From positions 1-64,000 of IMG/VR virus record IMGVR_UViG_3300045988_130750: a stretch of 64,000 nt of DNA; one strand, written 5' to 3'. Both the position numbers and the translations under genes were made by a program. Below the pieces are notes generated by a model, which saw nothing but the letters and a program-made list of their open reading frames with translations, made no database searches and was not told the DNA's origin. This document shows positions 36,915 through 61,155 of the stretch, piece after piece. This DNA is from a virus. Each line of letters begins with the position of its first letter. Positions within the stretch are counted from its first letter, which is position 1.

Positions 36915-36918
36915 ATAA

Positions 36919-36991: not shown

Positions 36992-37052
36992 ATATTTATT
37001 TTTCATAACCTTTACAGAGTGCTTTGAAAAATATAAAGTCAAGTATCTCTAA

Positions 37053-37124: not shown

Positions 37125-37129
37125 ATAAA

Positions 37130-37890: not shown

Positions 37891-37894
37891 TTGT

Positions 37895-37912
37895 ATTTTA
37901 TTATTCTCCAAA
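37895..37912 (-). promoter_or_regulatory. recurrent TGGAGAATA promoter-like motif
   Basis: minus-sense TTTGGAGAATAATAAAAT; 19-nt block TATTTTATTATTCTCCAAA (plus strand) identical to the copy at 49336-49354. Confidence 0.4.
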
Positions 37913-37915
37913 CAC

Positions 37916-37944
37916 TTGTTGCATGTCCTTGTTTCTGCTATAAT
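37916..37944 (+). promoter_or_regulatory. sigma-A-like promoter, divergent from the ncRNA promoter
   Basis: TTGTTG, 17 nt, TATAAT; followed by a TAAGGAGG RBS and a 15-codon ORF (37981-38028); the transcript would be antisense to the tRNA-like element and the int 3' end. Confidence 0.4.
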
Positions 37945-38035
37945 ATTCTTCTCCCTATATGGACTAAGGAGGAATTGCCCATGAAAGCAGTTTTGAATCT
38001 GTCCCGTCCAACTGAAATAAGCAGCTAAAAGGACA

Positions 38036-38113
38036 TGTAATAAAGCGGAATCGAAACCGCTTAAAGTGTGTATCCGTGTTAAGAAAGATCAAGTTGGTAA
38101 CTTGCTTTGTTAC
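38036..38113 (-). other. tRNA-like element next to the integrase stop (attP core candidate / pseudo-tRNA)
   Basis: GTAACAA/TTATTAC acceptor (1 mismatch), perfect CAAG-TTACCAA-CTTG D-arm, AGCGG-TTTCGATT-CCGCT T-arm, but a 14-nt anticodon loop. Confidence 0.35.
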
Positions 38114-38236
38114 ATAATAGGCGTAGTAACAATGCCACAACGGAGGTTGGAAAATAAATTCGACATGGGACGACCTCACCAATCGTCTCATTTGAAGTAT
38201 ATGTTTGAGGATTTATCAAGGGTTAGATGAAAGCTT

Positions 38237-39262: not shown

Positions 39263-39287
39263 ATCAAAAGAAGCGAAGTAGTAATAA

Positions 39288-40466
39288 CTAGATCACTTCT
39301 TGATAGTCAATAACATTTCTTCCCCATTTAATATCATCTTTATATTTCAATTCACCAATTTTTGATACTTTATTCCAATTGATATTATTCTTAATAAAAG
39401 ACTCAATATTTTTTCTAAGTGCAATAGAATCTTCAACTAGAATTTTATGTATGTTTTCTTTAGTTAGATCACAGGGGAAGAGTATATAATAATTTAAATT
39501 GTTTTCTTTTAACATAGATTGTTTTTCGGATAACTTTTGACGATAAATTTCTTTAGAATTGCTACATGTTATTTCTTTGTTAGAAAAGAAATGGTTCTTA
39601 TACGATTCAATAACTCCAGCAATTTCAATATAAATATTTTTACCATTAATATTAATTAAATAATCACAGTTCATATTTTTATTGTAATTTGGAATAAAAG
39701 ATGAATATTTTACATCTCTTTGATAGTCAACGCCATATTTAAGACCAAAATCACGTAAACACTTAGAAAAAAGATATTCAAATTGACTTGTTACATGTTC
39801 GCCGTCTAGAAAATCAAAAGTAATTCCTCTACCTTGTTTCCCAAGATTTATATTTTCTTTTGATAAAATAGTTTGCAAATCGCAATTGTAATACTTCTTA
39901 ATCGTTTTTTGTAATGTATCAGCATTTAGCCAATTATGATTATTGTCAATTTCTGATGTTGTTATAAAATTACGATTATCATTTTTAACATAGACACAAA
40001 TATCAAGTATCATTTTATCTAGTTCATCTTTAGATAAAGATTTATCTATCATTGATTCTTGAACTATTTCTAATCCAAGTTCCTTTTTCATATTATTAAT
40101 TGTTCCCCAATATTTTTTGATTCCTTCTATGGGTGGATGGTAACATCCTCTTCCTCTAAAGTCATCATACATTAAAGGTCTATCTTTTTCTGATTGTAAT
40201 TTGTAAATCAGTTTTATCATTTTATTCTTTGATGGTGTTTTACCTTTTGCTACAAAACCACACCAATCAACAAAATCAGCCCAAGTTTTAACTGATTCAT
40301 CTGGACAATTATTTATATACCATCTACCATCAGGTAAGTTAAAAGGCTCTTTCCGCAATAAATCATATTTTATTGGTTTGCCTAATTCTTCACTTTTTTG
40401 AACATATTCCCTTACATAATGGTCGTAATCTTCGATATTAAATTCTCTCTGTTTTGTACTTCCCAT
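39288..40466 (-). CDS. homing-endonuclease-like protein (Vsr/DUF559-type core, divergent)
   Basis: start moved to ATG 40466 (AGGTG RBS); C-terminal half NCDYLININGKNIYIEIAGV... resembles the hhhE-x-x-G core of the other three paralogues. Confidence 0.45.
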   Translation of the reverse strand: MGSTKQREFNIEDYDHYVREYVQKSEELGKPIKYDLLRKEPFNLPDGRWYINNCPDESVKTWADFVDWCGFVAKGKTPSKNKMIKLIYKLQSEKDRPLMYDDFRGRGCYHPPIEGIKKYWGTINNMKKELGLEIVQESMIDKSLSKDELDKMILDICVYVKNDNRNFITTSEIDNNHNWLNADTLQKTIKKYYNCDLQTILSKENINLGKQGRGITFDFLDGEHVTSQFEYLFSKCLRDFGLKYGVDYQRDVKYSSFIPNYNKNMNCDYLININGKNIYIEIAGVIESYKNHFFSNKEITCSNSKEIYRQKLSEKQSMLKENNLNYYILFPCDLTKENIHKILVEDSIALRKNIESFIKNNINWNKVSKIGELKYKDDIKWGRNVIDYQEVI

Positions 40467-40645
40467 ATTTTTCACCTATGCCTTTCCCTATGCCAACAAC
40501 TAAAAATAGAACAGTAGAAGAGAGGCATAGGTTCTCATATACTTGGTAGCTACTCCAAGTACCTACTGTTCCATAAATCCTCCAACCAGCTATGACACCA
40601 ATCAGAAGCACATATATTTGTTCTCTATTTGTCGCACGACAAATA

Positions 40646-40680
40646 TCAAAAACTTGTTCATATCACATTACTTGAACAAG
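40646..40680 (-). terminator. rho-independent terminator after tRNA-Asn copy 2
   Basis: minus-sense CTTGTTCA...TGAACAAG 8-bp stem followed by TTTTTG. Confidence 0.55.
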
Positions 40681-40685
40681 TTAAG

Positions 40686-40757
40686 CTGGCTCGGTAGGGA
40701 TCGAACCTACGACATCCTGATTAACAGTCAGGCGTTCTACCTCTGAACTACGAGTCA
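40686..40757 (-). tRNA. tRNA-Asn (anticodon GTT), copy 2
   Basis: TGACTCG/CGAGCCA acceptor (A3xC70 mismatch), CCTGA-CTGTTAA-TCAGG anticodon arm with compensated changes relative to copy 1, GTAGG-TTCGATC-CCTAC T-arm. Confidence 0.7.
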
Positions 40758-40799
40758 ATACAAAAAGAGTGCGCAGCATAAACCACACACTCTAAAAAT

Positions 40800-41474
40800 T
40801 TAAAAAATAAAATCAAGCAAATCAAATAATCTTCCAACCGAATTATATTCGTCAAAATCACTTAAATCAATCGGCTTACTAGAATAAAATTCACGCTTTT
40901 CATATCCATTAACATCACTTTTAACAGAAGTAAATCCGTGAATATTTCCGTTTTCATCTTTATCAAATGTAATATTCTTATGAGAATCATCACTTACGTC
41001 ACTGCAACTGCAATTCTTACAATTGCCATCACAATCATCGTCTACATCTTCAGCGTCCTCACCAATGTTGAATTCATGAATAATGCATCCAGAATATTTA
41101 TTGTCCTTGACAAAAGCTGAACTTACATCTCCATGAATAAATACAATGTCTGTCTCATCCATATTGATATAAGTATCACTTCCCTCATACTTGGCAGCCC
41201 GAACACATACATTCATTTCAGAATCAATACTAAGAATAAATGCATCATCATAACCGTCCAAATAAGGATCATTCAAATCGTTACAAGAAGCAAGTTTAAA
41301 ATTCGTATTTTTAATAACAGAATTAAGAACATCTTTCATCACATCATACTTAGCCACAACTACAATTTCTGAACAATCATCGTCATAATCTCTTGTACAA
41401 ACATCCAGCTTGTCAAAAGTATCTGCTAAAAATTCAGCAAAATCATTTGTATCTGTAAAACCAAATGTTTTCAA
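40800..41474 (-). CDS. highly acidic Cys-containing protein (224 aa)
   Basis: TTG start with AAGGTGGTG RBS; runs such as EDAEDVDDDCDGNCKNCSCSDVSDDSH. Confidence 0.55.
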   Translation of the reverse strand: MKTFGFTDTNDFAEFLADTFDKLDVCTRDYDDDCSEIVVVAKYDVMKDVLNSVIKNTNFKLASCNDLNDPYLDGYDDAFILSIDSEMNVCVRAAKYEGSDTYINMDETDIVFIHGDVSSAFVKDNKYSGCIIHEFNIGEDAEDVDDDCDGNCKNCSCSDVSDDSHKNITFDKDENGNIHGFTSVKSDVNGYEKREFYSSKPIDLSDFDEYNSVGRLFDLLDFIF

Positions 41475-41495
41475 TATATTTTCACCACCTTAGAA

Positions 41496-41780
41496 TTAGA
41501 GCTGTTTTGCAGACTTTGACATCTTAAAGCAAATCTCATCATGCTGTGGAGTTACATATTCCTCGCCCTTGCGATCACCCATCATAATTTTTCCTCTACG
41601 CTCTGGAACTGTCTTAACCTTAAACTTTCCAAGTTTTCCAACTGCAACTGATTCTGCGTGATTTGCTGTTAATGTCTCTGTGATTACATCAGCAAAAGCA
41701 TCAAGAATAACTGAGATGTCCTTCTGTGAAGCTCCCTCAACTTTATTTACTACTGCCTTTAATACCTCGTTCTTTGTCAT
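41496..41780 (-). CDS. HU/IHF-family DNA-binding protein
   Basis: start moved to ATG 41780 (AAGGAG RBS); MTKNEVLKAVV...SQKDISVILDAFADVITETL...VGKLGKFKVKTVPERRG is the HU fold signature. Confidence 0.8.
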   Translation of the reverse strand: MTKNEVLKAVVNKVEGASQKDISVILDAFADVITETLTANHAESVAVGKLGKFKVKTVPERRGKIMMGDRKGEEYVTPQHDEICFKMSKSAKQL

Positions 41781-41986
41781 TTTAATTTTCTCCTTTTTTC
41801 TCAACTATTTATTTTTTTAATACAAAAAGAGGGTAGTGTTTCATTTGAGTACACTCCCTCCGATACATACAATTGTGACAGCAACATCACAATTTCTATA
41901 CAATCGGACTAATTAAAAGTAGAAAATTAGCCCAATTTTCATAGTTACTTATACATAATATAAAAACCAAGTCACTCGTACTTGGT

Positions 41987-42982
41987 CTACTTTGTCATGA
42001 AATTAGTAATAATTCTTGTCTTGGAATCAATAATGTCACCATTTGAATCCAATGCAAGATACATAAACCCGTTCTGATTTGGAATTATAAGTTTACCGTT
42101 GTTATAATCCAGCTTATCCAAATCACACACACAACCTTGCTCATACATTTTTATTCCACCTTGAGTAAAACTTCCTACTTTATGGGTATGAGCCATTACG
42201 ATTCCAGTAAATGTGCGATCTACACGCAAGAAATAATTGACTGCCTTTTCTGTTGTTTTTAACATACCAGATGAATAATTTAATGGGTGACAGAAAATTA
42301 CATTACCTTCTTTTATCCACCATTCTTTATCATAAACGATTTCAATATTTGAATCTTCAAACACTTCACGAATAGAAGAGTATTGTGTCTGGGTTTTATT
42401 TCTTTCATCATTAACTTTGAATCCATCGTCTACAATCATTTCTAGCGGATCTGTTGGAATGATGCCAAGTAATTCATTTGATAATCTATCAGAACAGTAT
42501 CTTTGCATACGGTATTCATGATTTCCCATCACAAACATTACCTTTTTAGGTGTAGTCAGATTGATTAAATCAATAATATACTGTCTTCCTAAAACAAGTT
42601 CTTCATCAAGATTTATTTTGAATTTTTTAGGAAATGCAGAACATGAAAAACAATCCAATAAATCACCATTGACTATTAAAGTGTCTATAATTCCCTTATA
42701 ACCTGAAAAAATATCAATAGGTAAATTAAACGGAATATGAACATCTGACACACATAAAATTCTTTCAGATGCACCCTCACAGTTGTGAATATAATTATCA
42801 TACTCTTCATATCCAACAGCCTGTTTTCTAAGCTGATCTGGTGTAATATTCAATCCAAGCATATCTCGAATTTCAATCCAATCCATATCTGTCTCTTTAC
42901 GTTTCTTTGCAAGACAACATCTTAATTTCCATTCAAAATCTGTTTCATTTTCTAATCTATGTAAGTCGATTATAATGTCCAC
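41987..42982 (-). CDS. calcineurin-like metallophosphoesterase
   Basis: VSDVHIPF, NGDLLD, MGNHE, AHTH motifs in canonical order. Confidence 0.75.
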   Translation of the reverse strand: MDIIIDLHRLENETDFEWKLRCCLAKKRKETDMDWIEIRDMLGLNITPDQLRKQAVGYEEYDNYIHNCEGASERILCVSDVHIPFNLPIDIFSGYKGIIDTLIVNGDLLDCFSCSAFPKKFKINLDEELVLGRQYIIDLINLTTPKKVMFVMGNHEYRMQRYCSDRLSNELLGIIPTDPLEMIVDDGFKVNDERNKTQTQYSSIREVFEDSNIEIVYDKEWWIKEGNVIFCHPLNYSSGMLKTTEKAVNYFLRVDRTFTGIVMAHTHKVGSFTQGGIKMYEQGCVCDLDKLDYNNGKLIIPNQNGFMYLALDSNGDIIDSKTRIITNFMTK

Positions 42983-42992
42983 CTACTCTCTA

Positions 42993-43220
42993 TTACTCTT
43001 CATCAGACGGAACATCCAGCTCCTCATCTGTTTTTAATGCAACAGTAAAATCAATTACCTGATTCTTAAATGATGTAAGCAGATCGGCTACTTTTACTTC
43101 CTGCTCCATATCATTTTCATCAGTATATGTAATAGTAGTACAATCCTCTGAGAGTGTACCTGCCTTTACTGTCAACTTATCTGTAGTTGTTCTTGTAAAT
43201 TTTAATTTACTAGCTGCCAT
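42993..43220 (-). CDS. hypothetical acidic protein (75 aa)
   Basis: GGAGGAAAAGG RBS. Confidence 0.55.
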   Translation of the reverse strand: MAASKLKFTRTTTDKLTVKAGTLSEDCTTITYTDENDMEQEVKVADLLTSFKNQVIDFTVALKTDEELDVPSDEE

Positions 43221-43241
43221 AATTCCTTTTCCTCCATAAAA

Positions 43242-43535
43242 TTAAAAATTCCCACCAGAACGCTTTCTGCCAGGATTATAATACATTTGTTTCGTTTTAT
43301 TCTGTTTTACTTCAATATACTCACGAATCTTCCTAATATAATTTTCATCATAGCTTAAACGAATATGTGACTCCAAATAATAACATCCACAACGAGTAGG
43401 AATTTTATTAGATAACACATTGTCTATAAGCCTATATGACGGGTTAAGATTTGAGAGATGAGTATGCTTTTCTGTATCTTCTTTTCTGCTAATACGATAG
43501 CCATTTTCTGTTCTGTCAATATAAAACCCTTTATA
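43242..43535 (-). pseudogene. 3' part of a small gene interrupted by the TnpB element (start-less 97-codon ORF)
   Basis: open frame YKGFYIDRTENGYRISRKED... begins exactly at the IS right end and has no start codon; joins in frame to the 7-codon ORF at 44842-44862. Confidence 0.5.
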
Positions 43536-43720
43536 GTGAACTGCCCATTGGCTTTAGACAATGGACTTCTTGCTTCATCGTCCTCGTAACCTACTAACTC
43601 CACAAGCGTAAATTCCGATAGTTCCTACCGTACTAAATATCCGTTATGCTGCTTCCAACAGCCTTAATCCTTCATTGAGAATGTTCTTTGCAGCGTTTAT
43701 ATCTCTGTCATGCTTCGTCC
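43536..43720 (-). ncRNA. omega (right-end) guide RNA scaffold of TnpB; limits approximate
   Basis: in known TnpB systems the scaffold spans the tnpB 3' end to the right end; structured 110 nt after the stop; the guide would be read from the flank TATAAAGGGTTTTATATTGAC. Confidence 0.5.
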
Positions 43721-44753
43721 CACACTTAGGACAAATCCATTCTCTTACAGATAAATCTTTGGTATTCTTATTGACATATCCACAAATATTACAAAGCTGA
43801 CTAGACGGAACATATCTGCCAATTTTGATATATGTACGCCCATTCCATTCAGCCTTATATGTGAGCTGCCTTGTCAATTCATACCATCCACAATCTGTAA
43901 TTGCTTTAGCAAGATTATGATTCTTTACCATATTAGATACTGCTAAATCCTCACTAACTATCACTTGGTTTTCGCTGATAAGCCGATGTGAAATCTTATG
44001 CAGATTATCAATTCTAGTATTGCGAATCTTTTCGTGCACTCTTGCAAGTTTTATTCTTTGCTTTTGATAATTCTTACTACCTTTTGTTTTATGAGATAAT
44101 TTACGCTGTTCTTTTGCAAGTTTGTTCTCATATTTTTTTATAGTCCGAATATTATTAAATTTTTCTCCATCAGAAGTGATAAGTAAATCCTTAATACCTA
44201 AATCAATACCGACTATACTGCTTGTTTCTGGAAGAACTTCATGGTCAGTTTTGACCAATACAGATACAAAATACTTCCCACTTGGAACTTGTGAAATGGT
44301 GGCTGATTTTATTTTACCGACAAACTCTCTATGAACTTTTGCCTTGACCCATTTCAGTTTTGGAAGTTTGATTCTGTTATTCTCAAAAGAAACTTCGATA
44401 TTTCCATTTGTGAAGTTTGTCTTATAAGACTTTTTATTGTCTCGCTTGCTCTTAAATTTCGGATAACCTGCATGTTCTTTGAAAAATTTCTGATACGCTG
44501 AATCCATGTTAATGACTGCATTATCTAACGCAAATTTATCTACTTCTTTTAACCATAAATATTCGGTTTTCAGAGTCTTGTTCTTCCAGTTATTACAATC
44601 AATCTTACTTAAAGATTCTTTTTTGGTTTCATAAAGATTCCTCCTATATGCAAGCGTCTGATTATATACAAATCTACAACAACCAAAAGTTTTCTGAATC
44701 TGAATTTCTTGCTCTTTGTTTGGATATAGTCTGTATTTATAGGCTTTAAGCAT
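43644..44753 (-). CDS. tnpB: TnpB RNA-guided nuclease (OrfB_IS605)
   Basis: MLKAYKYRLYPNKEQ...FGCCRFVYNQ; RuvC motifs GIDLGIKD, VSEDL, HDRDINAAKNI; zinc finger CNICG...CPKCG. Confidence 0.95.
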   Translation of the reverse strand: MLKAYKYRLYPNKEQEIQIQKTFGCCRFVYNQTLAYRRNLYETKKESLSKIDCNNWKNKTLKTEYLWLKEVDKFALDNAVINMDSAYQKFFKEHAGYPKFKSKRDNKKSYKTNFTNGNIEVSFENNRIKLPKLKWVKAKVHREFVGKIKSATISQVPSGKYFVSVLVKTDHEVLPETSSIVGIDLGIKDLLITSDGEKFNNIRTIKKYENKLAKEQRKLSHKTKGSKNYQKQRIKLARVHEKIRNTRIDNLHKISHRLISENQVIVSEDLAVSNMVKNHNLAKAITDCGWYELTRQLTYKAEWNGRTYIKIGRYVPSSQLCNICGYVNKNTKDLSVREWICPKCGTKHDRDINAAKNILNEGLRLLEAA

Positions 44754-44841
44754 TCACTACTCACCCCATTCTAATATATTCTCTTTTTATTGTGCTTCTC
44801 ACCCATCAGCTAAAGCTAATGGGATTGCGAACCGATTCTTA

Positions 44842-44862
44842 TTTTTTAATTCGATTTTTCAT
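44842..44862 (-). pseudogene. 5' stub (MKNRIKK) of the gene interrupted by the TnpB element
   Basis: ATG AAA AAT CGA ATT AAA AAA then TAA at the predicted left-end junction. Confidence 0.4.
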
Positions 44863-44871
44863 AGACAAAAC

Positions 44872-45042
44872 CTACTTAACATATTTATCTTCAATGTAAC
44901 GTTTTCTTGCAACACCTTTGGTACGATAGTAGCCGACCTGTTCGCCTCTGCGGTCTACATAACCTCGTTTAGTATTACGAATTACACCTTCAGATAATAA
45001 TTTTTCAATTTCACTTTTAGAAATCTGTTTGATAATTTTCAC
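44872..45042 (-). CDS. small basic protein, paralogue of the interrupted gene
   Basis: KRGYVDRRGEQVGYYRTKG resembles YKGFYIDRTENGYRISRK in 43242-43535; start uncertain (GTG 45042; the track start 45111 would overlap tRNA-Lys). Confidence 0.45.
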   Translation of the reverse strand: MKIIKQISKSEIEKLLSEGVIRNTKRGYVDRRGEQVGYYRTKGVARKRYIEDKYVK

Positions 45043-45080
45043 TTCCTTTGATTTATTTTCTGCTGAATAGCAGAAGAGAG

Positions 45081-45155
45081 TGAGCGTGGAGGGATTTGAA
45101 CCCATCGACAACTCGATTAAAAGTCGAGTGCTCTACCAAACTGAGCTACACACTC
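45081..45155 (-). tRNA. tRNA-Lys (anticodon TTT) with weakened T-stem
   Basis: GAGTGTG/CACGCTC acceptor, GCTC/GAGC D-stem, CTCGA-CTTTTAA-TCGAG anticodon arm; T-arm ATGGG-TTCAAAT-CCCTC has two mismatches. Confidence 0.65.
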
Positions 45156-45531: not shown

Positions 45532-48141
45532 TTAATAATTTTCCGAGAAACATTTTAGCAAATTTGCACTATTGATATCATATAATGCCTTGATTAAAAT
45601 AGATTTTCTTTTCTTGATTTTTGATTTTAACTTATACTGATTTTGCTTTTGAGAAATAGAAACACAGAAAGCTCTATCAATCAACCAACTAAATAATCCA
45701 ATATAATTCTTAGATACATAAACTTTTTTTATATCCTGAATCATATTATCAAAATCCATTTTTAAAAGAAAATAAGAATCTTCATTTTCAGAGCTAATAG
45801 TAGAATAATATTTGTTCATATACATTTCTATTATTTCTTCAACTTTTTTACATGTTTTTCTGTTCTTTTCTATCTCAAATTTCTTGAAAAAATATTGGAT
45901 TGGAATTGTAGATTCATTTGACCTGAATTGGTCGAGTTTTAGATTATAAAGATAATTCATAGGACAAACAAGATTATAATTGATATTTTTTTCTTTAAAA
46001 TCTCTTCTAATAACTTTCCAGAAAGCAGGATATTTGTTATTTTCAACATCCATATCTTTTTTTATACGCTTTATTTCAGAACCAACATCAACATCAAAAA
46101 GACGTTTTGCTGAATCTATAGCGATCTGAGCTAATACACTGAGTATACAAACATAATCCTTATATTTCTGTTCATCAAACGTACAATCATAAGTCTGAGC
46201 AAGTTGCGCAAGATTACTTGATTCGCCTATATCTAATTGTGAAGCTGCTAATTTATTATCTAATCTCGCAAAATCTTTCATAGTGCTATCATATACATTT
46301 GAATCTTTAGGAATATTATTTACAATGGTTAAATATTTTTCCTTACAATTTTTCGCATGTAATACGATGTCGGCTTGGTTTGTAGTATAAATACTATCAC
46401 TATCCATGTCACTACCATTGTTACGGTCTTGAAAATCAGTACCATTCATGTTTACAGCAATAATCTGGTCACAAAATTTAAAATACTTCTTGAATCTGTC
46501 ATTATATACATTATGTAAATACCCAAGATTATACTTTCCATTAAACGGACTTCTAAACTCAGCAAGATATTCATTATCATTAAATCTGGTGGTATAACAT
46601 TGAGTTGCTAAATCTTCAACAGAAAATGTATCATCTTTATCAACATCACAGGAATTACCAGTCGCACCATACAGCAACATTGCATATGGTGAACCAACTA
46701 TCACCAAATTATCTGCATTTTGAATTACTTTACCACTCTTGAAATTTAAAACATATGTCATAATAATTGCCTTTTTACGATCCCTGAAATAAGAACTTCT
46801 AAGAAAATCTCGATTCTGTTCACATAAAGCAATTAATGCTTCGTAATCGTTTGAAAAGTTAATATTTTTCCTCAAATAATCAAGAAAGAAATCATCATCG
46901 GTCTTTAACCTATTGATATATTCAATACTTTCCTTGCATACATTTTCCATAATTTCAACATCAAGAGAATTTACCATCTGGTAACTCATACGCTGCACAG
47001 TTCCAAGCTTACTTGGATGAGCAGTTTTAACAATACCAAACATACAGTCGTTCTCATAAACTTTATTACACCAATAGTCATATGACACGTCATACTTAAT
47101 CCATTTCATTGCGTTATCAGTTGTAATAAGTTCTATATCTTTTACATAATGCTCATTTCCCCACATATCTTTTACTGTGGCAGAATAGTAGTCATCACCA
47201 AAATAATCACGGAAAAATAATTGAATGTTGCTACAGAAAGCAGCCATTTTACAGAAATGATGTCTAAGAAGAATATAACCATTTCCCCAATTTGGAAAAA
47301 TAGAAGAGTCGATTAAAGCCTGTCCATCAAATAACGTATTTTTTAATTTATAATCTTTAATAGCTTTCGCAATACAATGTTTATTTTCATCTATTTCAAC
47401 AGAAATAACATTTGTGTTAAAATACCTATCAACATCTTTTAATACCAAAATATTTTTAGGATTGATTTTAACTTTTCCAACAATTCCGCTACATACGAGA
47501 GAAGAGTATGCGCTAATCCCAACAATATCCGCATTATGTTTTGGAAGTTTTATTCCCATTCTAAGATAATTAATTGCCTTGTTATACAATTTATCTCTTA
47601 TAAACATACAAGTACCTTTTTTTGCTTTACCTGTACTTCTATATAACATTTTATAATGGATAACTTCTGTTTTAATAATATCACCGTTCCTTTTACGAGT
47701 AATATATTCTACATTAACTCCATTATTATAAAATTCTTCTCTTATTGTATCTGCTGATAATGAGAAATAATCTGTTTTATGATTAACAGCAAAATTATAT
47801 AAACTTATTATTTTCTTTTTCTTATTCGTCTGTAGTTCTATTAGTTTTTTACTTCCAGAGCTAATTGCCTTTTTATATTCAATTCTTGCATTTTTTGCTA
47901 TTTTTCTAATATGAGCTATTTCCTCATCATAAGAACGTGTACCAAAATTAAATTCCAAGCATATTAAGTCTCTCGTAGATTCATCATTCCATACCTTCAA
48001 TTTGTTCTCACACATAAAGTCTTTAAATAAGCTATTTACGAACATTGCGTCTTTATAATCATAATGATCACGAAGTCCTTTATTATATTCATAAAGAGTT
48101 GCAGCTTCAATATTTTTTATTTTAATTCCAAATTCACTCAT
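45532..48141 (-). CDS. single-subunit RNA polymerase, SPbeta YonO-like / RdRP-like two-barrel family (hypothesis)
   Basis: 869 aa; NGSDMDSDSIY matches the D-b-D-G/S-D metal-binding loop (GSDLDGDxY in cellular RdRPs, same family as YonO); size close to YonO; HU gene nearby as in SPbeta. Confidence 0.5.
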   Translation of the reverse strand: MSEFGIKIKNIEAATLYEYNKGLRDHYDYKDAMFVNSLFKDFMCENKLKVWNDESTRDLICLEFNFGTRSYDEEIAHIRKIAKNARIEYKKAISSGSKKLIELQTNKKKKIISLYNFAVNHKTDYFSLSADTIREEFYNNGVNVEYITRKRNGDIIKTEVIHYKMLYRSTGKAKKGTCMFIRDKLYNKAINYLRMGIKLPKHNADIVGISAYSSLVCSGIVGKVKINPKNILVLKDVDRYFNTNVISVEIDENKHCIAKAIKDYKLKNTLFDGQALIDSSIFPNWGNGYILLRHHFCKMAAFCSNIQLFFRDYFGDDYYSATVKDMWGNEHYVKDIELITTDNAMKWIKYDVSYDYWCNKVYENDCMFGIVKTAHPSKLGTVQRMSYQMVNSLDVEIMENVCKESIEYINRLKTDDDFFLDYLRKNINFSNDYEALIALCEQNRDFLRSSYFRDRKKAIIMTYVLNFKSGKVIQNADNLVIVGSPYAMLLYGATGNSCDVDKDDTFSVEDLATQCYTTRFNDNEYLAEFRSPFNGKYNLGYLHNVYNDRFKKYFKFCDQIIAVNMNGTDFQDRNNGSDMDSDSIYTTNQADIVLHAKNCKEKYLTIVNNIPKDSNVYDSTMKDFARLDNKLAASQLDIGESSNLAQLAQTYDCTFDEQKYKDYVCILSVLAQIAIDSAKRLFDVDVGSEIKRIKKDMDVENNKYPAFWKVIRRDFKEKNINYNLVCPMNYLYNLKLDQFRSNESTIPIQYFFKKFEIEKNRKTCKKVEEIIEMYMNKYYSTISSENEDSYFLLKMDFDNMIQDIKKVYVSKNYIGLFSWLIDRAFCVSISQKQNQYKLKSKIKKRKSILIKALYDINSANLLKCFSENY

Positions 48142-50131: not shown

Positions 50132-51004
50132 TTAATCTACATAAAGTTGGCAAGCAATTTTAAGTAAAACATTTCCTTGTTGCATATCATTAACTATAAA
50201 GTCAACCTTTGGATAATTCCAATCAGGATGTTCAAGATTATTTTCTTTGAATTTTTTATCTGCCTTTTCCCAATCTTTATAAAAATTAGGAAATGTCTTT
50301 GAAAATTCTTTATACATTGGAGTCCATTTAGCGGAACTATTCATGCCACAAATTCGCTTTACCTCCTCTTTATAATCTTCTACTCTTTTTACAGAAACGT
50401 TTTTTCGAGCAATTTTATATTCTTTTTCTTTTTTTTCATATCTGATAATAGACTCCCTTATCTTATCTTGATTACTCTCAAAATATGTAATAATGTCTTT
50501 ACTAAATGTGATTTTTTTCTTTGAAATATGAATATAATTAAGTAATTCTTTATCTACAGATTCATCAAAAGTTGACTTAATAAAATACGAGTTTCTAAAT
50601 TCGTTAATTTTCATATCAAAAATTCCATGCTCATATAAATAATATTTAAGATTAGTAGGAGCAAACCCTGGAATATTTAACTCTCTGCATAAACTGCGAA
50701 TATCAAGAATATCATTGACTTCTGGTGGTTTAAGTTCTGAATTATTTAAGTTATTGACAGTAATTTCATCTTTTTTTTGTTCTTCTAAGATAGAAATTCT
50801 CTCAAGCAAATTCTTGATAGCTTTATTGATTTCGTTATTTTCTTCTCTATGCTTTAAATTGTAATTACTAAGATCCAAATGAAGTTTGTTTACTTCTGCT
50901 TGAATTTCTTTATTTACAAATTGATTGATAATTCCTGTCTCATTGGTTGTAGACTCATCTACAATTCTTTTGACATCCTGTTCATTTACAATAAGTTTAC
51001 CCAT
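50132..51004 (-). CDS. hypothetical protein (290 aa)
   Basis: start overlaps the stop of the ParB-like gene. Confidence 0.55.
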   Translation of the reverse strand: MGKLIVNEQDVKRIVDESTTNETGIINQFVNKEIQAEVNKLHLDLSNYNLKHREENNEINKAIKNLLERISILEEQKKDEITVNNLNNSELKPPEVNDILDIRSLCRELNIPGFAPTNLKYYLYEHGIFDMKINEFRNSYFIKSTFDESVDKELLNYIHISKKKITFSKDIITYFESNQDKIRESIIRYEKKEKEYKIARKNVSVKRVEDYKEEVKRICGMNSSAKWTPMYKEFSKTFPNFYKDWEKADKKFKENNLEHPDWNYPKVDFIVNDMQQGNVLLKIACQLYVD

Positions 51005-52182
51005 TAGTTCAATTCCTCCATATCAATTATATTTTTATTTGTAGTAACACCGATTGTTTCAGCCATTGTTTCACACCAATCATTCACCATATATATAATA
51101 TTCTCTAAATTTTTTCTTAAAGCTGTATTATCTTTTATAACAGGTAGAATTTTGGAATATCTTAATGGCGATAGAGTAGTAGATAATAATTTTTCTATTT
51201 CATTTACAAGAGTTGTAATGTCTTTTGAAATCTCAATAACGTTATAATCTCCACTTGGATCTAAATTCAAAGTTGCTATATCATTTTTCAATTTTATGTA
51301 TTCTTCGGATTCTTTTTTATATGATTGCAAAAGACTTTCATTAAATTCATTAGAAGATTTTAATGTACTATTCATAATTTCCAAGTTATTGATTTTCGTC
51401 TTTAAGTTAGAAATCTGAGACATGGCTTTTTTATATTTATTCTCTAAATCATAATCAGTTTTATCAATTATTTTTTCTTTGGCAGATTGTGATTTTAGCT
51501 GATTTATCTCGTTAATATATTTTTGAACTTCATTTTTAGTGATTTTCTTAGTTGTGTCCATAGAAGATATAAGTTCAATTTGTTCATCTTCAGATAAATT
51601 TCGCATTATGGCAAGGGCAGTAGTAGGCATTACTATTCCTGTATCAACAAGGTCTTTCAACTCTGGTATCATTTCAGTGAGCTTTTTGTAGTTTTGAAGA
51701 GATTGAACAGATATACCTATTTCTTTTGCTATATCCGCCTCAGTTTTTGGAGTCTTATAATTATTAGATGACTCCTCATATTGATTCCCATAATATCCAG
51801 ATCCGCCTTGTTTTATATCATAAATTCTTTCAAGTTCTTTAATACATTTGCCGAGTTTAATTGCATTAGGATTACCAATACCACGTTGACGAATATTAGT
51901 TTCTATGAGATCAGCAAGGATTTCGTCATCTGAATCATATATTTTAATTTCAGCATTAACCTGTTTCTCTCCAAGTTCTTTCAACCCCCTGACTCTTTGA
52001 TGTCCTGATACTATAGTTTTATCTTGAGTTATTACAATTGGTTCTACGTTCCCAGTTTTTCCATTTTTTATTCGTTCTCGCATAGAATCCAGAAATTGTT
52101 CCCAATTAGAACCAGTAATATCATCAAAAAATTCATTGTTTCTTGGATGAGGTTTTAATTCACCTATATTTATTGGTTGCAT
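51004..52182 (-). CDS. ParB-like N-terminal (ParB/Srx) domain protein with HTH and coiled-coil tail
   Basis: start moved to ATG 52182 (GGAAAGGAAAG RBS); IGELKPHPRNNEFF...EPIVITQDKTIVSGHQRVRGLKELG is the ParBc signature. Confidence 0.75.
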   Translation of the reverse strand: MQPINIGELKPHPRNNEFFDDITGSNWEQFLDSMRERIKNGKTGNVEPIVITQDKTIVSGHQRVRGLKELGEKQVNAEIKIYDSDDEILADLIETNIRQRGIGNPNAIKLGKCIKELERIYDIKQGGSGYYGNQYEESSNNYKTPKTEADIAKEIGISVQSLQNYKKLTEMIPELKDLVDTGIVMPTTALAIMRNLSEDEQIELISSMDTTKKITKNEVQKYINEINQLKSQSAKEKIIDKTDYDLENKYKKAMSQISNLKTKINNLEIMNSTLKSSNEFNESLLQSYKKESEEYIKLKNDIATLNLDPSGDYNVIEISKDITTLVNEIEKLLSTTLSPLRYSKILPVIKDNTALRKNLENIIYMVNDWCETMAETIGVTTNKNIIDMEELN

Positions 52183-52285
52183 TTTTCTTTCCTTTCTTCT
52201 AAAACATAATTTACAGTTACAATTTGTGAGATGAGAGTGTGGTAAGTGATTCAATTAGTTATTCTCTTTTTATTTATGAAATATA

Positions 52286-53516: not shown

Positions 53517-54572
53517 TTATTCTTCTGTTTCTTCCTCAATAATATAATCAGCACATAACCAATCTGATTCTGGCTTTGCAATTAATCTTGCATCCATATA
53601 AGCCATTTCCATAGTAAGACATGTTTTTGCTTGATAATGATTGCCTCTTCGTTTTTCAAGAACCAATGCAATATCTGGTTTATCATCCTTTGTAAAACAT
53701 AATGGAATCATTAATTGGATCTTTTCTTGATAATAGTGCGGAATGGCTAACTTATAATTGGCAGTTACTTTTTGTATAGCAGTATCAATATAACCTTTTA
53801 ATACCTCTAATGGTCTTTCACTTTCTTTGATACAGTTTGGTAATCTGTTGTATGTATTTAAGTCATCTAATATGTGATTATAATTAGGATGTACCTTACA
53901 ATGCCAATCAAATACTAGAAGAGTAGTATCCTGAAAATAATCTGCTCTTTCGGGAAAATCTGCATCAACATCAAGAGATGTTAATTCATATTCATCTTTA
54001 AATCCTTTAAAATACCATTTTTGTACCGAATCATCAGTTAAATATCTTTGATTTAATTCGCCATATGCATAAATTGGTATATAACGATCAGTGAATAAAC
54101 CAGTATTAAATAAACAATATTCATCAGTTTCAATGATTTTGTGTTCACGCTGTAATTGATAAAATGTGTTTAATAGATAATTTTTTAGAATTGCATTATC
54201 ATTTTTATTTTCAAAATTCCAGGACTCTTTTATAGCTTTTTCAGCAAGCGATTGAATTTGAGAATTATAATCTCCCCAATACATATAATCATATAATTTT
54301 ATAAGTTCCATATATTCCATGCCTTCTTTCTGAAAAGTTTCTTTTAGTATAGCATTTTTTCTTGATATAGAAAAGAATTTTTCTGGAATCTTAAGTTCTT
54401 TATAAAATGTTTCATAAGGATTATCTGTATATTCTTGAATATGACGTGCTGATAATCCTTTTTGAAAAATTGCTTTTTGATACGCTTCTTTTTCTGATTC
54501 AGCATAAATTACAATTATGTTTTTGTATACATTTCCGAATTCTTCCGTTGTTGGTACTAAATATGTGTTCAT
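53517..54572 (-). CDS. DUF3825 domain protein
   Basis: C-terminus NYKLAIPHYYQEKIQLMIPLCF...DIALVLEKRRGNHYQAKTCLTMEMAYMDARLIAKPESDWL matches the DUF3825 signature. Confidence 0.65.
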   Translation of the reverse strand: MNTYLVPTTEEFGNVYKNIIVIYAESEKEAYQKAIFQKGLSARHIQEYTDNPYETFYKELKIPEKFFSISRKNAILKETFQKEGMEYMELIKLYDYMYWGDYNSQIQSLAEKAIKESWNFENKNDNAILKNYLLNTFYQLQREHKIIETDEYCLFNTGLFTDRYIPIYAYGELNQRYLTDDSVQKWYFKGFKDEYELTSLDVDADFPERADYFQDTTLLVFDWHCKVHPNYNHILDDLNTYNRLPNCIKESERPLEVLKGYIDTAIQKVTANYKLAIPHYYQEKIQLMIPLCFTKDDKPDIALVLEKRRGNHYQAKTCLTMEMAYMDARLIAKPESDWLCADYIIEEETEE

Positions 54573-55129: not shown

Positions 55130-56164
55130 TTATTTATTGGGATTAGTAATCCTATGATTTTTCATATTTAATTTTTTATCATAATTACATAAATTATAAA
55201 TATTTCCTTGTCTTAATCTGGTTTGCACTGTTTGTATAGAACAATCAAGCTTATTGGAAATTTTTTCTACTGAATATCCTTTATTCCATAATTTACAATA
55301 TTTTGATACTACATTCTGTGTTGCAAATTTGCTACATTCAAATTCGGATATATTTGAAAAATCAATAAAAGTTAATACAGATTTTGCTATATTATATAGA
55401 TTGTTTTGATCTCTTGCATCTATAACATAATATGATAGTCCATTTTTTATAGCTGTATCATATTTTAATTTATCTGATGATATACATTCAAGGTATTGTT
55501 GTTCAGCAGTTCTCTGTTCTCTATTTGGATTTTTAATTGGTTCGTAATGTTGTACTCCGTTTATTTCGACAATAGCATTATATTTTGGAAGATATACGTC
55601 ATACCATCTATTTTGTAACCAATTAAATTCTTTTTGAACTTCAAATTCTATTCCAGCTTGTATAAATATGGAAAATATAAATCTTTCAGTCCAAGAACTT
55701 CTAATTCCACAAACAGGACAAGATGATAATATCTCTTCACGAGTTTCATATTTATATCCACAGGATAAACATTTTAATTTATATCCTCTTGCAGTTTCAT
55801 AACCTTTTGATGATTTTACAGAAATCCTACATTGCTCAATTACTTTAGATTTTTGAAAATCTTTGTCTATAATATTTCCAACATTATATTTATATTTTCT
55901 TGTATTTACATTTTTATTGAGAAAAGTAGGGATTCTTAATTGAAGTAAATTTGATGTAGAAGTTGTCATTATATTGTCTTGATATTGAATTGTAATGAGA
56001 TTTTTCCGATTAATAGATTCATAATCTATAATTTTAATTATTCCTTCTAAGTCATCATATTGAAATGGTAACTCCTTGCCTATATTCTCTTTCCAATAGA
56101 AGTGTCCTTTATTATTACCTGAAGTATATTTCGTGAGAGTAGAAGTGTCTAAGTATTTTGTCAT
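55130..56164 (-). CDS. homing-endonuclease-like protein, Vsr/DUF559-type nuclease with Zn ribbon and C-terminal HTH
   Basis: CLSCG...CPVCG; WYDVYLPKYNAIVEINGVQH...DTAIKNGLSYYVIDA core; N-terminal region collinear with 5650-7260. Confidence 0.6.
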   Translation of the reverse strand: MTKYLDTSTLTKYTSGNNKGHFYWKENIGKELPFQYDDLEGIIKIIDYESINRKNLITIQYQDNIMTTSTSNLLQLRIPTFLNKNVNTRKYKYNVGNIIDKDFQKSKVIEQCRISVKSSKGYETARGYKLKCLSCGYKYETREEILSSCPVCGIRSSWTERFIFSIFIQAGIEFEVQKEFNWLQNRWYDVYLPKYNAIVEINGVQHYEPIKNPNREQRTAEQQYLECISSDKLKYDTAIKNGLSYYVIDARDQNNLYNIAKSVLTFIDFSNISEFECSKFATQNVVSKYCKLWNKGYSVEKISNKLDCSIQTVQTRLRQGNIYNLCNYDKKLNMKNHRITNPNK

Positions 56165-58248: not shown

Positions 58249-58336
58249 GGTCATAAAGTGCCAGGCACATTCTACGCTTTTTGAGCGGTGCGTATTAAAA
58301 CGCTTTAGGAAGTCGGTTCAAATCCGACTATGACCT
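58249..58336 (+). ncRNA. tRNA-like element T1 (acceptor plus canonical T-arm, non-canonical core)
   Basis: GGTCATA/TATGACC acceptor; GTCGG-TTCAAAT-CCGAC T-arm; the interior 56 nt forms three short hairpins but no standard D or anticodon arm. Confidence 0.45.
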
Positions 58337-58389
58337 TTTACCCAAAAATATATTGCACTCATGCGTTAAATGGGAGAAAGAAGGATATT

Positions 58390-59187
58390 ATGTTAAAATC
58401 TGAAAAATTCTATTCAAAAACTAATGCACTCAAAGACACTACTTTTGACTTTGCAGGTCATGTTCGTACACTTGTACGCCACACTGAATTATCACGGATG
58501 CAGGATAAGAAGTCATTCAAGGATGGCAAAAAAGCCCTTGAGGATTTACACGCTAATATTGACGTTATGACTTGCGAAAAGTCTATTATCAATGAGGCTT
58601 TAGGTGTAGACGCTGGGCAGTTCATCAAAGACCGTGAAGAGATTATTGCACTTAAGGAAGAAATTGCAAGCCTTCCTATTACTATTGACCAGGTAACTGC
58701 ATTGTGTCCTACTGACCGTGTGCATATTACTTTGATGGCTCATGCTATCTATAAGAATGTACAGCTTGATGCGGATATTTTCGATACTGAAAAAGGCGGT
58801 GTTGATATTTCTAAAGCTATTCACGCTTACTACAGTAAAGGCTCTATTAAGGACTTAAAGGATGCTTTGCGTCCAATATTCAATAAGTTAATCGGTTCTG
58901 AAGGTGACCATTTCTACGGCATTAAACCCAAAAAGTCCGACTTTACCGAAAAAGACCTTCGCAACTTCCTTGCTACTTTTGGCGGTTCTGCTAAACGTGA
59001 GCAGGTCAAGTCTAAAAAGGATGGAGTAGAAACAATCACATTCAAGGATTTTAACTATACAGACAAATCAGGCAATAAAAAAGTACAGATTACAGCCTTT
59101 ACAACTCTTTGTGCAGTAGTCCTTGATAATGCATCAAAACACGAAGTTATTAAACCAGAAGAGAAGAAGAAAGAAGAAGCAAAATAG
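58390..59187 (+). CDS. hypothetical protein (265 aa)
   Basis: start moved to ATG 58390 (GAGAAAGAAGG RBS); the track start 58330 lies inside the tRNA-like acceptor stem. Confidence 0.6.
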   Translation: MLKSEKFYSKTNALKDTTFDFAGHVRTLVRHTELSRMQDKKSFKDGKKALEDLHANIDVMTCEKSIINEALGVDAGQFIKDREEIIALKEEIASLPITIDQVTALCPTDRVHITLMAHAIYKNVQLDADIFDTEKGGVDISKAIHAYYSKGSIKDLKDALRPIFNKLIGSEGDHFYGIKPKKSDFTEKDLRNFLATFGGSAKREQVKSKKDGVETITFKDFNYTDKSGNKKVQITAFTTLCAVVLDNASKHEVIKPEEKKKEEAK

Positions 59188-59235
59188 GATAACGGCTCAC
59201 GCTGGGTTAGCAGGGTTCGATTCCCTGCTTATCCT
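59187..59235 (+). ncRNA. tRNA-like mini-helix T2 (acceptor plus T-arm only)
   Basis: GGATAA/TTATCC stem enclosing GCAGGG-TTCGATT-CCCTGC; starts at the last base of the stop codon. Confidence 0.4.
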
Positions 59236-59295
59236 TTAAAAACTATAAACGCAAATTAGGGCTACAAGTCTGCCCATTTTTAAGGAGGAATCACC

Positions 59296-59769
59296 ATGAT
59301 TAAGCATGAACCAAAATTTTATGTGCGACTTTGCAAGGGGAAATCTGTAAATTTCCCTGATAATTTTACAATCTATCCTGGTTCGATTTATGGACGTTTT
59401 CAAGACTCAAAAGGCAAACGTATTTTCTGGGTGTGTGATTCTTACACACTATCAGATGATAAACTTCCAGTGCATATTTTTAATGGATTATACTGGAAAT
59501 TATGCCTAGTTTCTGTGGATCATCCATGCTATCAGTGGGTAAAGTCTGCGATTGAATCAATGGGTAAAGTGCCTAAAATTCAAAAGGAAAATGTAACTTT
59601 TGATGATTGTAAAAATATGATGAAGTCATATTCTTTGCATAAAAAAGGAATTGGTTCACGGATTAACACGCACCAAATCAACAACCCGTTGCAATGGAAT
59701 GAGGTCACTGAAACTGCGCATTGGTATGGTAAAGGAAACGCAAGCGTAGTTGCGTCAAATATTAGATAG
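59296..59769 (+). CDS. hypothetical protein (157 aa)
   Basis: AAGGAGG RBS. Confidence 0.6.
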   Translation: MIKHEPKFYVRLCKGKSVNFPDNFTIYPGSIYGRFQDSKGKRIFWVCDSYTLSDDKLPVHIFNGLYWKLCLVSVDHPCYQWVKSAIESMGKVPKIQKENVTFDDCKNMMKSYSLHKKGIGSRINTHQINNPLQWNEVTETAHWYGKGNASVVASNIR

Positions 59770-59784
59770 TTGGAGGGAAATACT

Positions 59785-60024
59785 ATGCTTAACACACTTG
59801 ATATGTACGGGATTTGTCACGAAATTTACAGGGATTTTAGGGGAAAATCTGTCTATGAAAAGACAGATGAAAATATACTTAATGTTATTTTTATGCTTTA
59901 TAATACAACAGAGATAGACTGCGAAGAAATTCGAGATTTATGGATTGAGTACCTTACAAAAGGGAGTTTGTCTATTCCTACAATGATACAACGTGCAAAA
60001 ATGCGCAGTTATAAGGCAAGCTAA
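59785..60024 (+). CDS. hypothetical protein (79 aa)
   Basis: start moved to ATG 59785 (GGAGGG RBS). Confidence 0.55.
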   Translation: MLNTLDMYGICHEIYRDFRGKSVYEKTDENILNVIFMLYNTTEIDCEEIRDLWIEYLTKGSLSIPTMIQRAKMRSYKAS

Positions 60025-60033
60025 ATACTTGCC

Positions 60034-60083
60034 TTCCGTCTTACGGTGAAAGTCCGTAACCGATGAGCAGAAGCGAAACGGAA
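60034..60083 (+). ncRNA. hammerhead-like self-cleaving ribozyme motif (type III topology)
   Basis: stem III UUCCG/CGGAA plus U-A; GUC cleavage triplet; stem I UUACGG/CCGUAA; core CCGAUGA (consensus CUGAUGA); stem II GC-AGAA-GC; GAA. Confidence 0.5.
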
Positions 60084-60158
60084 ATTGTAAAGGAGGCTGA
60101 TTATATGGTATCATATTAACTAGGCTATATGCCTAATAAACACAAATGGAGGATTACC

Positions 60159-60422
60159 ATGTTAAAAATCAATGAATGGTCTGTAAACCGTAGAATAGAA
60201 TCTTTACGTCAGATGGATAAAATGCTATCTGAAATGAACGTAGGATCTCGCTATACTATATGGCAGGAATACGGTGGAGGACTAAAGGCAACCGCAGACG
60301 AAACACGCGCAAACTGGAAACGCATTGCAGAAGATGATGAGCTATATCAAAATGCATTATTCTGTTATATGGTTTGCACACTTGAAAAGCAAACTCTCAA
60401 AGGTTGGGAAAACGTAAAATAG
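60159..60422 (+). CDS. hypothetical protein (87 aa)
   Basis: start moved to ATG 60159 (GGAGGA RBS). Confidence 0.55.
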   Translation: MLKINEWSVNRRIESLRQMDKMLSEMNVGSRYTIWQEYGGGLKATADETRANWKRIAEDDELYQNALFCYMVCTLEKQTLKGWENVK

Positions 60423-60514
60423 TCTGCGAATTAGGGCAAGGGAAACTTTGCCCTTTTACAAAATGGAAATTATATGCTAGAATTGGAGGTGAAAAAACAT
60501 TGGAGGCATATAAA

Positions 60515-60811
60515 GTGAAAGTAAGTTATAATAGGCTTTTTAACAAGTTAAAAGAAAATAGCGTAACACAAAAGCAATTTAGGGAAACCGTTGGAATTGG
60601 TGGAACTACTATGGCAAAACTAAAAAACAATGAATCAATCACGATAGATACTATATGTAACATTTGTGATTATTTTCGCTGTATGCCTGATGAAATAATG
60701 GAATTTATTCCAGAATCCAATTATCCAGCAGACATTATAGAAAAGCAAAGACAAAAAGAAGAGGTACAATCTCAAATCGCCTCTCTCCAAGCAAAACTAA
60801 AACAAATGTAA
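60515..60811 (+). CDS. XRE-family HTH protein
   Basis: start moved to GTG 60515 (GGAGG RBS); SVTQKQFRETVGIGGTTMAKLKNNESITIDTICNICDYFRCMPDEIMEF is a Cro/C1-type HTH. Confidence 0.65.
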   Translation: MKVSYNRLFNKLKENSVTQKQFRETVGIGGTTMAKLKNNESITIDTICNICDYFRCMPDEIMEFIPESNYPADIIEKQRQKEEVQSQIASLQAKLKQM

Positions 60812-60864: not shown

Positions 60865-61155
60865 ATGAGTAAAGCGAAAATAAATCCCAGGGGTTCTTCC
60901 TGGGATGAACTTGAGAAACAGTTGTTTAGTCCACAAGAGATTGCAGAAAGTGAAGCTAGAGTTGCAATTATCAACGAAATGATAAACGCAAGGGAAGAAA
61001 ATGGAATCACACAAAAACAACTTGAAGTAATGAGTGGAATTAAACAACCTGTTATTTCAAGAATGGAAAAGGGAATGACTGATCCACAGTTATCCACGGT
61101 TTTAAAGATTTTAAATTCATTAGGAAAAACAATTAAAATTGTACCTATGAAATAA
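60865..61155 (+). CDS. XRE-family HTH protein (HigA/antitoxin-like size)
   Basis: ENGITQKQLEVMSGIKQPVISRMEKGMTDPQLSTVLKILNSLGKTIKIV. Confidence 0.65.
   Translation: MSKAKINPRGSSWDELEKQLFSPQEIAESEARVAIINEMINAREENGITQKQLEVMSGIKQPVISRMEKGMTDPQLSTVLKILNSLGKTIKIVPMK

Follow-up and report, generated by a model that had tools for sequence, protein, structure and literature searches.

Introduction

Hundreds of self-cleaving hammerhead ribozymes have been described in bacteria and prophages, where they often flank small genes, and cleavage in vitro has been shown for multi-ribozyme transcripts (Perreault et al. 2011, PMC3088659). Stem II of bacterial and phage hammerheads often comprises only 2 base pairs (bp), and core variants are rare (PMC3088659). 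Their role is described as unresolved, with the processing of polycistronic transcripts as the main proposal (PMC6765202, PMC6155905). Here we analyzed a 50-nucleotide (nt) element at positions 60034–60083 on the plus strand of a 64,000-nt stretch of viral DNA (positions 1–64,000 of IMG/VR record IMGVR_UViG_3300045988_130750; hereafter, the window), which an earlier note had read as a type III hammerhead ribozyme.

The closest described systems are the bacterial and phage type III hammerheads (PMC3088659; CL00010, RF00008 Hammerhead_3). The element shares with them the three-way junction, the core bases C3, G5, A6, G8, A9 and G12–A14, the A15.1–U16.1 pair and H17, as well as a 2-bp stem II, an intergenic location between small phage open reading frames (ORFs) with no known function and a proposed role in processing long transcripts. 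It differs from them in carrying C at core position 4 (C4), in being missed by Rfam, and in having its own loop I and loop II sequences with a covarying pair. In addition, a hairpin usually abuts the 5′ side in the family described here.

Sequence and fold of the element

Along 60034–60083 (+), the element runs through stem III, GUC, stem I, CCGAUGA, a 2-bp stem II, GAAA and stem III again, forming a complete type III hammerhead of 50 nt. The 5′ strand of stem III, UUCCG, together with U16.1 (60039) occupies 60034–60039 and pairs with 60078–60083, as supported by sequence, fold and covariation. By hammerhead numbering, the predicted scissile bond lies between C17 (60040) and U1.1 (60041). Stem I (60041–60059), supported by covariation, has 6 bp between UUACGG (60041–60046) and CCGUAA (60054–60059), which enclose loop I, UGAAAGU (60047–60053). 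The core strand C3, C4, G5, A6, U7, G8, A9 (CCGAUGA, 60060–60066) leads into stem II (60067–60074), in which the pairs G10.1–C11.1 and C–G (GC/GC) are capped by loop II, AGAA. The sequence then closes with G12, A13 and A14 (GAA, 60075–60077), A15.1 (A, 60078) and the 3′ strand of stem III, CGGAA (60079–60083).

Direct reading of the sequence gives the type III arrangement, with an open stem III, stems I and II as hairpins and a single junction. Core bases C3, G5, A6, G8, A9, G12, A13 and A14 are all in register. The U expected at core position 4, within the U-turn CUGA, is replaced by C60061. At the cleavage site, U60039 pairs with A60078 as the A15.1–U16.1 pair, and position 17 is C60040, in agreement with H17 (not G). 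Every coordinate and base that the earlier note had named for the motif proved correct, and its reading as a type III hammerhead held, including the register and predicted cleavage site, the shortness of stem II and the substitution of C for U4. The ViennaRNA centroid structure of the 50-mer was the hammerhead fold, at −11.0 kcal/mol, an energy equal to that of the minimum free energy (MFE) structure.

Homology to canonical hammerheads and covariation

We built a covariance model, R1, from alignment A1 alone, which comprises 31 canonical phage hammerheads (U4, CUGAUGA), none sharing the stem I of the window. R1 matched 60034–60083 (+) over its full length (model positions 1–50) with 65.5 bits and an E-value of 1.2e-17, the sole significant match in 128 kb. 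A match to a model derived from canonical relatives argues that the element is almost certainly a homologue of canonical hammerheads and not a look-alike.

The compensatory changes that the earlier note had looked for in relatives were found, with strong covariation of stems I and III. In A1, whose sequences were pre-filtered for the presence of stems, as were those of the second alignment, 93% of cells were paired, compared with 27–41% with slid partners; both-side changes occurred in 9 of 14 pairs, and the covariation score was 0.533, against 0.10 in shuffles. The second alignment, A2, was restricted to C4 members (20 distinct sequences). Here stem I was 100% and stem III 96.7% paired, both-side changes occurred in 7 pairs, and none of 500 shuffles scored as well. 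By helix, stem III (helix 1) showed both-side changes in 4 pairs in A1 and 3 in A2, whereas stem I (helix 2), which was 100% paired, had 5 and 4 covarying pairs, respectively. The arms of stem I vary with pairing kept, as in UUACGG/CCGUAA, CGCCGG/CCGGCG, UGCAGG/CCUGCA and AGCCGG/CCGGCU. RNAalifold applied to the 20 C4 sequences independently returned the hammerhead three-way junction. The conserved structure of the family thus covaries.

A further pair joins the two loops. The second base of loop I and the third base of loop II (alignment columns 15 and 38) covaried in all 58 distinct family sequences, a pattern that may stem from few evolutionary events; the pair was A:G in 31, G:A in 19 and G:U in 8. 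The window carries G60048 and A60071 at these positions. This pair is a candidate tertiary contact and fits loop–loop docking as in fast natural hammerheads.

Two other assignments were tried and rejected. A shifted register, in which C60060 would be an extra base and C60061 would serve as C3, would delete U4 and break the C3–G8 spacing, and is also contradicted by R1, with which all 50 positions align without gaps. Other self-cleaving classes (twister, pistol, hatchet, twister-sister and HDV-like) gave no Rfam signal, and the element bears no resemblance to them.

Relatives at the locus and the wider family

We searched the two flanking proteins against IMG/VR and obtained 44 loci on phage contigs of 50–200 kb. 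Roughly half of these carry the 50-mer nearly unchanged, among different upstream sequences and at least three different downstream genes. Changes within this close group were limited to C17 to U17, loop I positions 3–4 and one U–A to U–G change in stem III. Loci L025–L040 have no ribozyme; at the same site they carry a homologous GGCAGA…UCUGCC hairpin followed by UUUU, a normal terminator, downstream of which the same GGAGG/TATGGTA block is kept.

To describe the wider family, we used a pattern that fixes only the core and stem II (CYGATGAGC-N4-GCGAAAC) against IMG/VR. It returned 52 distinct complete type III hammerheads, 35 with CUGAUGA and 17 with CCGAUGA. Beyond the pattern itself, these share a 6-bp stem I, a loop I of the form U-R-N-R-A-G-U and a loop II of the form A-N-N-A. 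The family layout is a stem III of 3–7 bp, GUC, a 6-bp stem I, C-Y-G-A-N-G-A, a 2-bp stem II and GAAA. Of the 58 distinct family sequences, 53 had C at position 17, 5 had U and none had G; the A15.1–U16.1 pair was invariant. By homology, the window element is a member of this family. Three loci (L061, L074 and L104) have its exact interior except for U4, with a different stem III.

In genomes and metagenome-assembled genomes (MAGs), the family pattern had nine copies, three of them with C4, distributed over Butyrivibrio, Roseburia zhanii, Lachnospiraceae, Clostridia, Eubacteriales, Caproicibacter and two Bacteroidales MAGs. The earlier note had mentioned that hammerheads are known in Firmicutes prophages, and this setting is borne out by the relatives in Roseburia, Butyrivibrio and Lachnospiraceae/Clostridia and by a large window ORF that matches records of human-faecal phages and, distantly, Enterocloster phages. 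The compact hammerhead family is common among gut Clostridia phages, prophages included. A blastn search of 59296–60811 against 50,697 GenBank phages gave no match.

Several individual copies deserve mention. Contig L171 (IMGVR_UViG_3300045988_142974, 172,867 bp; locus 3644–3672) has an identical 50-mer followed by other sequence than in the window; this ribozyme allele is therefore present in more than one context. Family hammerheads also cluster within less than 1 kb, as at L137 1146–1982 (−), L102 4107–4756 (−) and L098 5474–5933 (+), and the three hammerheads of L137, one with C4 and two with U4, combine both core states in one phage. Two copies are probably decayed: L217 6791–6819 (+), which has U in place of G12 but is intact otherwise, and the C4 copy L216 7155–7183 (+) of Roseburia zhanii BX1005, whose stem I contains a C–A mismatch and whose stem III is mismatched at its end. 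A twister-P1-like RNA lies at L066 2027–2086 (+), about 800 nt upstream of the L066 hammerhead (50.6 bits; gathering score 67.2), and a skipping-rope RNA at L111 1297–1377 (−) scored 76.6 bits. Both fit the known clustering of phage ribozymes and associated RNAs.

Core position 4

We next used a tight pattern (AGTCC-N4-C-x-GA-x-GAGC-N4-GC-x-AAAC) against IMG/VR and freed one core position at a time. At position 4, U was found in 71 contigs and C in 54 (20 distinct sequences), counts that overstate independence for C4, because a single group of related phages and a single large sample set (3300045988) supply most of the C4 contigs; A or G was found in none. Freeing G5 yielded no non-G contig and freeing G12 yielded one (L217), whereas N7, known to be free in hammerheads, was non-U (A or C) in 47 contigs. 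Core positions C3, G5, A6, G8, A9 and G12–A14 were invariant in all 58 distinct sequences, though mostly fixed by the search pattern. The census profile mirrors the known constraints on hammerheads, so C4 looks like an allowed state, and the core bears a selective pattern.

C4 sequences are interleaved with U4 sequences, many nearest neighbours being 0–2 interior differences apart, and C4 is found in several separate sequence clusters, which implies that switches between U and C were repeated. C4 thus looks like a tolerated or selected state, as judged from its distribution, and not like decay. A viroid carries the same substitution in its natural type III hammerhead, which is reported to be much less active in vitro yet sufficient in vivo (Ambros & Flores 1998, as cited in PMC3088659). 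The viroid variant described there resides in an RNA replicon, whereas C4 here occurs in DNA phage genomes; it recurs in 54 IMG/VR contigs, representing at least 20 distinct sequences whose stems change by compensation, and alternates with U4 among close relatives. Because U4 and C4 alternate in near-identical members and the natural U4C viroid works in vivo, U4 is to be treated as highly conserved and not as an absolute criterion of membership.

The earlier note had suggested a variant, weakened or decayed ribozyme. Decay is unlikely, given C4 in 54 contigs and 20 sequences with the rest of the core invariant; a variant, possibly a slower one, stands. The C4 ribozyme is probably slower, or dependent on context or Mg2+, rather than dead. 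No report of this C4 subfamily turned up in the literature searched. These data are evidence, at the population level, that natural hammerheads can carry C in place of the "invariant" U4 with every other catalytic base unchanged.

Genomic context

The element lies on the coding strand within a block of small plus-strand genes spanning about 58.3 to 62.6 kb; the window has a G+C content of 31.5%, and its ribosome-binding sites (RBSs) are of the GGAGG type. The stop codon (60022–60024) of an upstream 79-amino-acid (aa) ORF (59785–60024) lies 9 nt before the motif, and the next ORF (87 aa, to 60422) has its likely start at 60159. PHROGs and Pfam searches of the flanking 285-, 157-, 79- and 87-aa ORFs returned no family, so gene function gives no clue. 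Two helix-turn-helix (HTH) regulators are encoded just downstream (60491–60808 and 60865–61152).

Directly upstream, at 0 nt from the ribozyme, is a 6-bp hairpin, GGCAAG-CUAAAUA-CUUGCC (60015–60033, +), whose loop holds the upstream stop codon. It lacks the U-tract that accompanies a GC-rich hairpin in an intrinsic terminator and is followed by UUCCGUCUU, and the terminator scan made no call at this site. A stable hairpin 0–7 nt before the ribozyme was present in about 63% of 65 distinct family contexts, compared with 11.5% of controls, which were segments of coding sequence 100–200 nt upstream (Mann-Whitney p 6e-18); some of the excess may reflect no more than the frequency of hairpins at gene ends. 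The family hairpins are mutually unrelated in sequence, and it is therefore the layout, not the sequence, that recurs. Across 110 distinct contexts, the ribozymes were intercistronic and on the coding strand, with the upstream stop codon at a median of 21–26 nt before the ribozyme. A Shine-Dalgarno sequence and ORF followed at a median of 18 nt in U4 members and 75 nt in the main C4 clade. Most family members directly precede an RBS, not a promoter.

Downstream of the window element, the promoter scan marked a promoter-like block at 60085–60114 (+), consisting of TTGTAA, an 18-nt spacer and TG-n-TATCAT. The same bases can alternatively be read as an RBS, AAGGAGG (60090–60096), followed by a 4-codon mini-ORF (MVSY*, 60105–60119, +). 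The block is kept in relatives with and without the ribozyme, and GGAGG is conserved in the would-be promoter spacer. Across L001–L044, it reads as a promoter with a −35 box of TTGTAA/TTGAAA, TRTG-n and a −10 box of TAnnAT, and as a mini-ORF encoding MVSY*, MVTL*, MVKL* or MVAL*, the stop codon always being kept. For 60085–60119, the two candidate readings fit equally well. A small hairpin, UAGGC-UAUAU-GCCUA (60121–60135, +), then precedes the RBS (GGAGG, about 60147–60151) and the start (60159) of the 87-aa ORF, and relatives have an equivalent hairpin (UAGGUAC..GUGCCUA).

Proposed function

We propose that a polymerase reading through from the upstream 79-aa gene would produce an RNA that folds into the three-way junction, in which the 2′-OH of C60040 would attack its own 3′ phosphate and cut the chain after C60040. 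The upstream product would be an mRNA ending in the hairpin (60015–60033) and UUCCGUC with a 2′,3′-cyclic phosphate, and the downstream product an RNA beginning at U60041 with a 5′-OH. The hairpin without U-tract would become a near-terminal 3′ structure protecting the upstream message. The cut would form the 3′ end of the upstream mRNA and uncouple the two messages, with transcription going on and no release of polymerase. We consider it likely that the hammerhead cleaves at a biologically useful rate and acts in this way; what is inferred here is that it cleaves and how fast, that the hairpin protects the message and which transcripts carry the element. The earlier note had proposed that the element cuts a polycistronic mRNA. 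This proposal gains from the family-wide intercistronic placement, but a promoter-like block follows the element here, which would confine the cutting to read-through transcripts.

The terminators of L025–L040 offer one comparison. In both cases a homologous hairpin stands right after the upstream gene, and the expected RNA end is the hairpin plus a short tail. The tail is UUUU in the terminators, whereas it is UUCCGUC, the 5′ strand of the ribozyme, in the window, where the end would arise by the proposed cleavage and not by polymerase release. A second parallel is RiboJ, a synthetic insulator made of the sTRSV hammerhead and a hairpin, which has its hairpin downstream and is placed in a 5′ untranslated region (UTR). 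As in RiboJ-type cassettes, a self-cleaving hammerhead and a hairpin are proposed here to give defined RNA ends and to uncouple neighbouring units. RiboJ is engineered with its hairpin downstream, whereas the present arrangement is natural, with the hairpin upstream, near the 3′ end of the upstream message. It is also conceivable, although we hold this idea only tentatively, that C4 is a selected alternative core, slower or gated by Mg2+ or folding, which together with the hairpin lacking a U-tract replaces an intrinsic terminator.

If this tentative idea of a selected C4 core is true, phages of gut Clostridia could make hairpin-capped 3′ ends and uncouple neighbouring small genes with the polymerase still transcribing. 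Natural alleles with a ribozyme (the window and L001–L024) or a terminator (L025–L040) at the same site would constitute a test of the purpose of phage hammerheads. Together with the recurring hairpin-then-hammerhead layout, they make processing in place of termination a testable idea.

Alternative explanations

Several observations weigh against a working hammerhead. The MFE of the 50-mer was not below that of shuffled sequences (z −0.76), and that of the 126-nt segment was not significant (z −1.34); these z-scores are uninformative because the RNA is so small. Rfam cmscan of the whole window at the gathering score found no hammerhead and no other ribozyme, and neither did the Rfam models in the 221 nt around the site at E ≤ 10. 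The missing Rfam match carries no weight because perfect-consensus family members were missed as well: Rfam hammerhead models were silent at E ≤ 1 for 16 such loci, and a 131-nt Rfam search of perfect-consensus L052 gave at best 17.2 bits, in a mis-registered Hammerhead_II alignment. Covariance models, which the earlier note had named as a check, therefore gave a divided answer, the Rfam models being at noise level and the family-specific R1 highly significant. The compact type III subfamily, frequent in gut-phage contigs, seems poorly covered by Rfam models; Rfam-based annotation is blind to it, and genome annotations are probably missing it. Rfam silence and the folding score would suit a chance match to a permissive hand-drawn descriptor, as would the 8 matches of a loose one-mismatch type III descriptor in the window, which make such matches cheap by chance. 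We give this explanation next to no credence, because a compact descriptor (stem I of at least 5 bp, stem III of at least 5 bp including A15.1–U16.1, loops of at most 10 nt, one mismatch) matched 60034–60083 alone in the window and 1 of 150 random first-order Markov windows (mean 0.007 per window), because R1 reached its E-value of 1.2e-17, and because dozens of related contigs, differing in their gene contexts, conserve the element. The promoter-like element directly 3′ also counts against the proposal, since transcripts of the next gene may lack the ribozyme, and it opens a different explanation: the palindromes TTACGG-N7-CCGTAA and TTCCG…CGGAA upstream of the next −35 box could form a DNA operator or activator site, the hammerhead likeness being incidental. 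Counted from the promoter-like TTGTAA-18-TATCAT, the site would occupy roughly −36 to −85, with the two HTH regulator genes just downstream, and sequence identity is very high in the close phage clade. Such a site is nevertheless highly improbable, because the half-site sequences vary widely with complementarity kept, a signature of RNA structure and not of protein–DNA recognition; moreover, the invariant bases are those of the unpaired hammerhead core, most family members precede an RBS instead of a promoter, and the R1 match is specific to the coding strand.

The remaining objections concern catalysis, besides the possible origins of the loop–loop covariation and the hairpin enrichment and the narrow sampling of C4 mentioned above. 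U4C considerably lowers activity in vitro (PMC3088659), and single CUGA U-turn mutants of a type III hammerhead were weakly active in a comprehensive mutagenesis with a co-transcriptional assay (PMC9901934). In addition, the oligonucleotide list of Perreault et al. includes an Aedes "cCgauga" construct, and their Figure S7 has an Aedes example among inactive hammerhead-like RNAs; this inactive example departs from consensus at two or more core positions (PMC3088659). Such findings, along with the near invariance of the element across the main C4 phage clade, as any sequence-specific role would give, are what one would expect of a hammerhead-derived RNA in which U4C disabled useful catalysis and the fold was kept as a structured 3′ UTR or insulator, a protein-binding site or a pause site. 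We regard this explanation as unlikely, although it deserves more weight than the two preceding ones. A non-catalytic role needs no fixed G5, A6, G8, A9 or G12–A14 and no exclusion of G at position 17, yet these positions are fixed in C4 members while the stems change by compensation. Furthermore, ribozymes that are nearly identical and equivalently placed alternate between C4 and U4, A and G are absent from position 4, and the natural U4C viroid hammerhead works in vivo according to Perreault et al. (PMC3088659). These points favor a cleaving ribozyme, probably a slower one, over a catalytically dead relic.

Other features of the window

A tRNA-like mini-structure lies at 59187–59235 (+), directly after the stop codon of ORF 58330–59187. 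It combines an acceptor-like stem of 6–7 bp (GGAUAA/UUAUCC) with a small hairpin and a perfect T-arm (GCAGGG UUCGAUU CCCUGC), and its MFE is −19.9 kcal/mol (z −3.1). Both ARAGORN and the Rfam tRNA model leave it uncalled. The structure is present in about 30 related loci, in which the acceptor stem shows compensatory changes (GGAUGA/UCAUCC, UAGGUAG/CUGCCUA) and the middle hairpin differs. It might serve the same gene block as an RNase P/Z processing signal, or be what is left of an att site. Just after it, at 59241–59250, is the motif (G)ACTATAAAC(T), which recurs immediately upstream of canonical hammerheads in L057, L066, L077 and L082 and may represent either a processing signal or a phage promoter.

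An ORF of 868 aa lies at 45532–48141 (−). It falls in phrog_8308, whose function is unknown, and carries the motif DMDSD around residue 578. It also has a distant match to a gene of Enterocloster phage PMBT24 with the annotation "RNA-dependent RNA polymerase"; searches against Pfam and PDB sequences gave no match. The protein may be a YonO/QDE-1-like single-chain RNA polymerase, perhaps one that ignores terminators.

Five tRNA genes on the minus strand (Trp-CCA, Glu-TTC, Asn-GTT twice and Lys-TTT) fall within 36665–45155. Near them are ORFs for a ParB-like protein (51004–52254), a DUF3825 protein (53517–54572) and an HNH/homing-endonuclease-like protein (55130–56164). A sub-threshold FuFi-1 RNA (RF02986) matched over the full model length at 38017–38192 (+), with 37.9 bits against a gathering score of 59.6 and an E-value of 1e-4.

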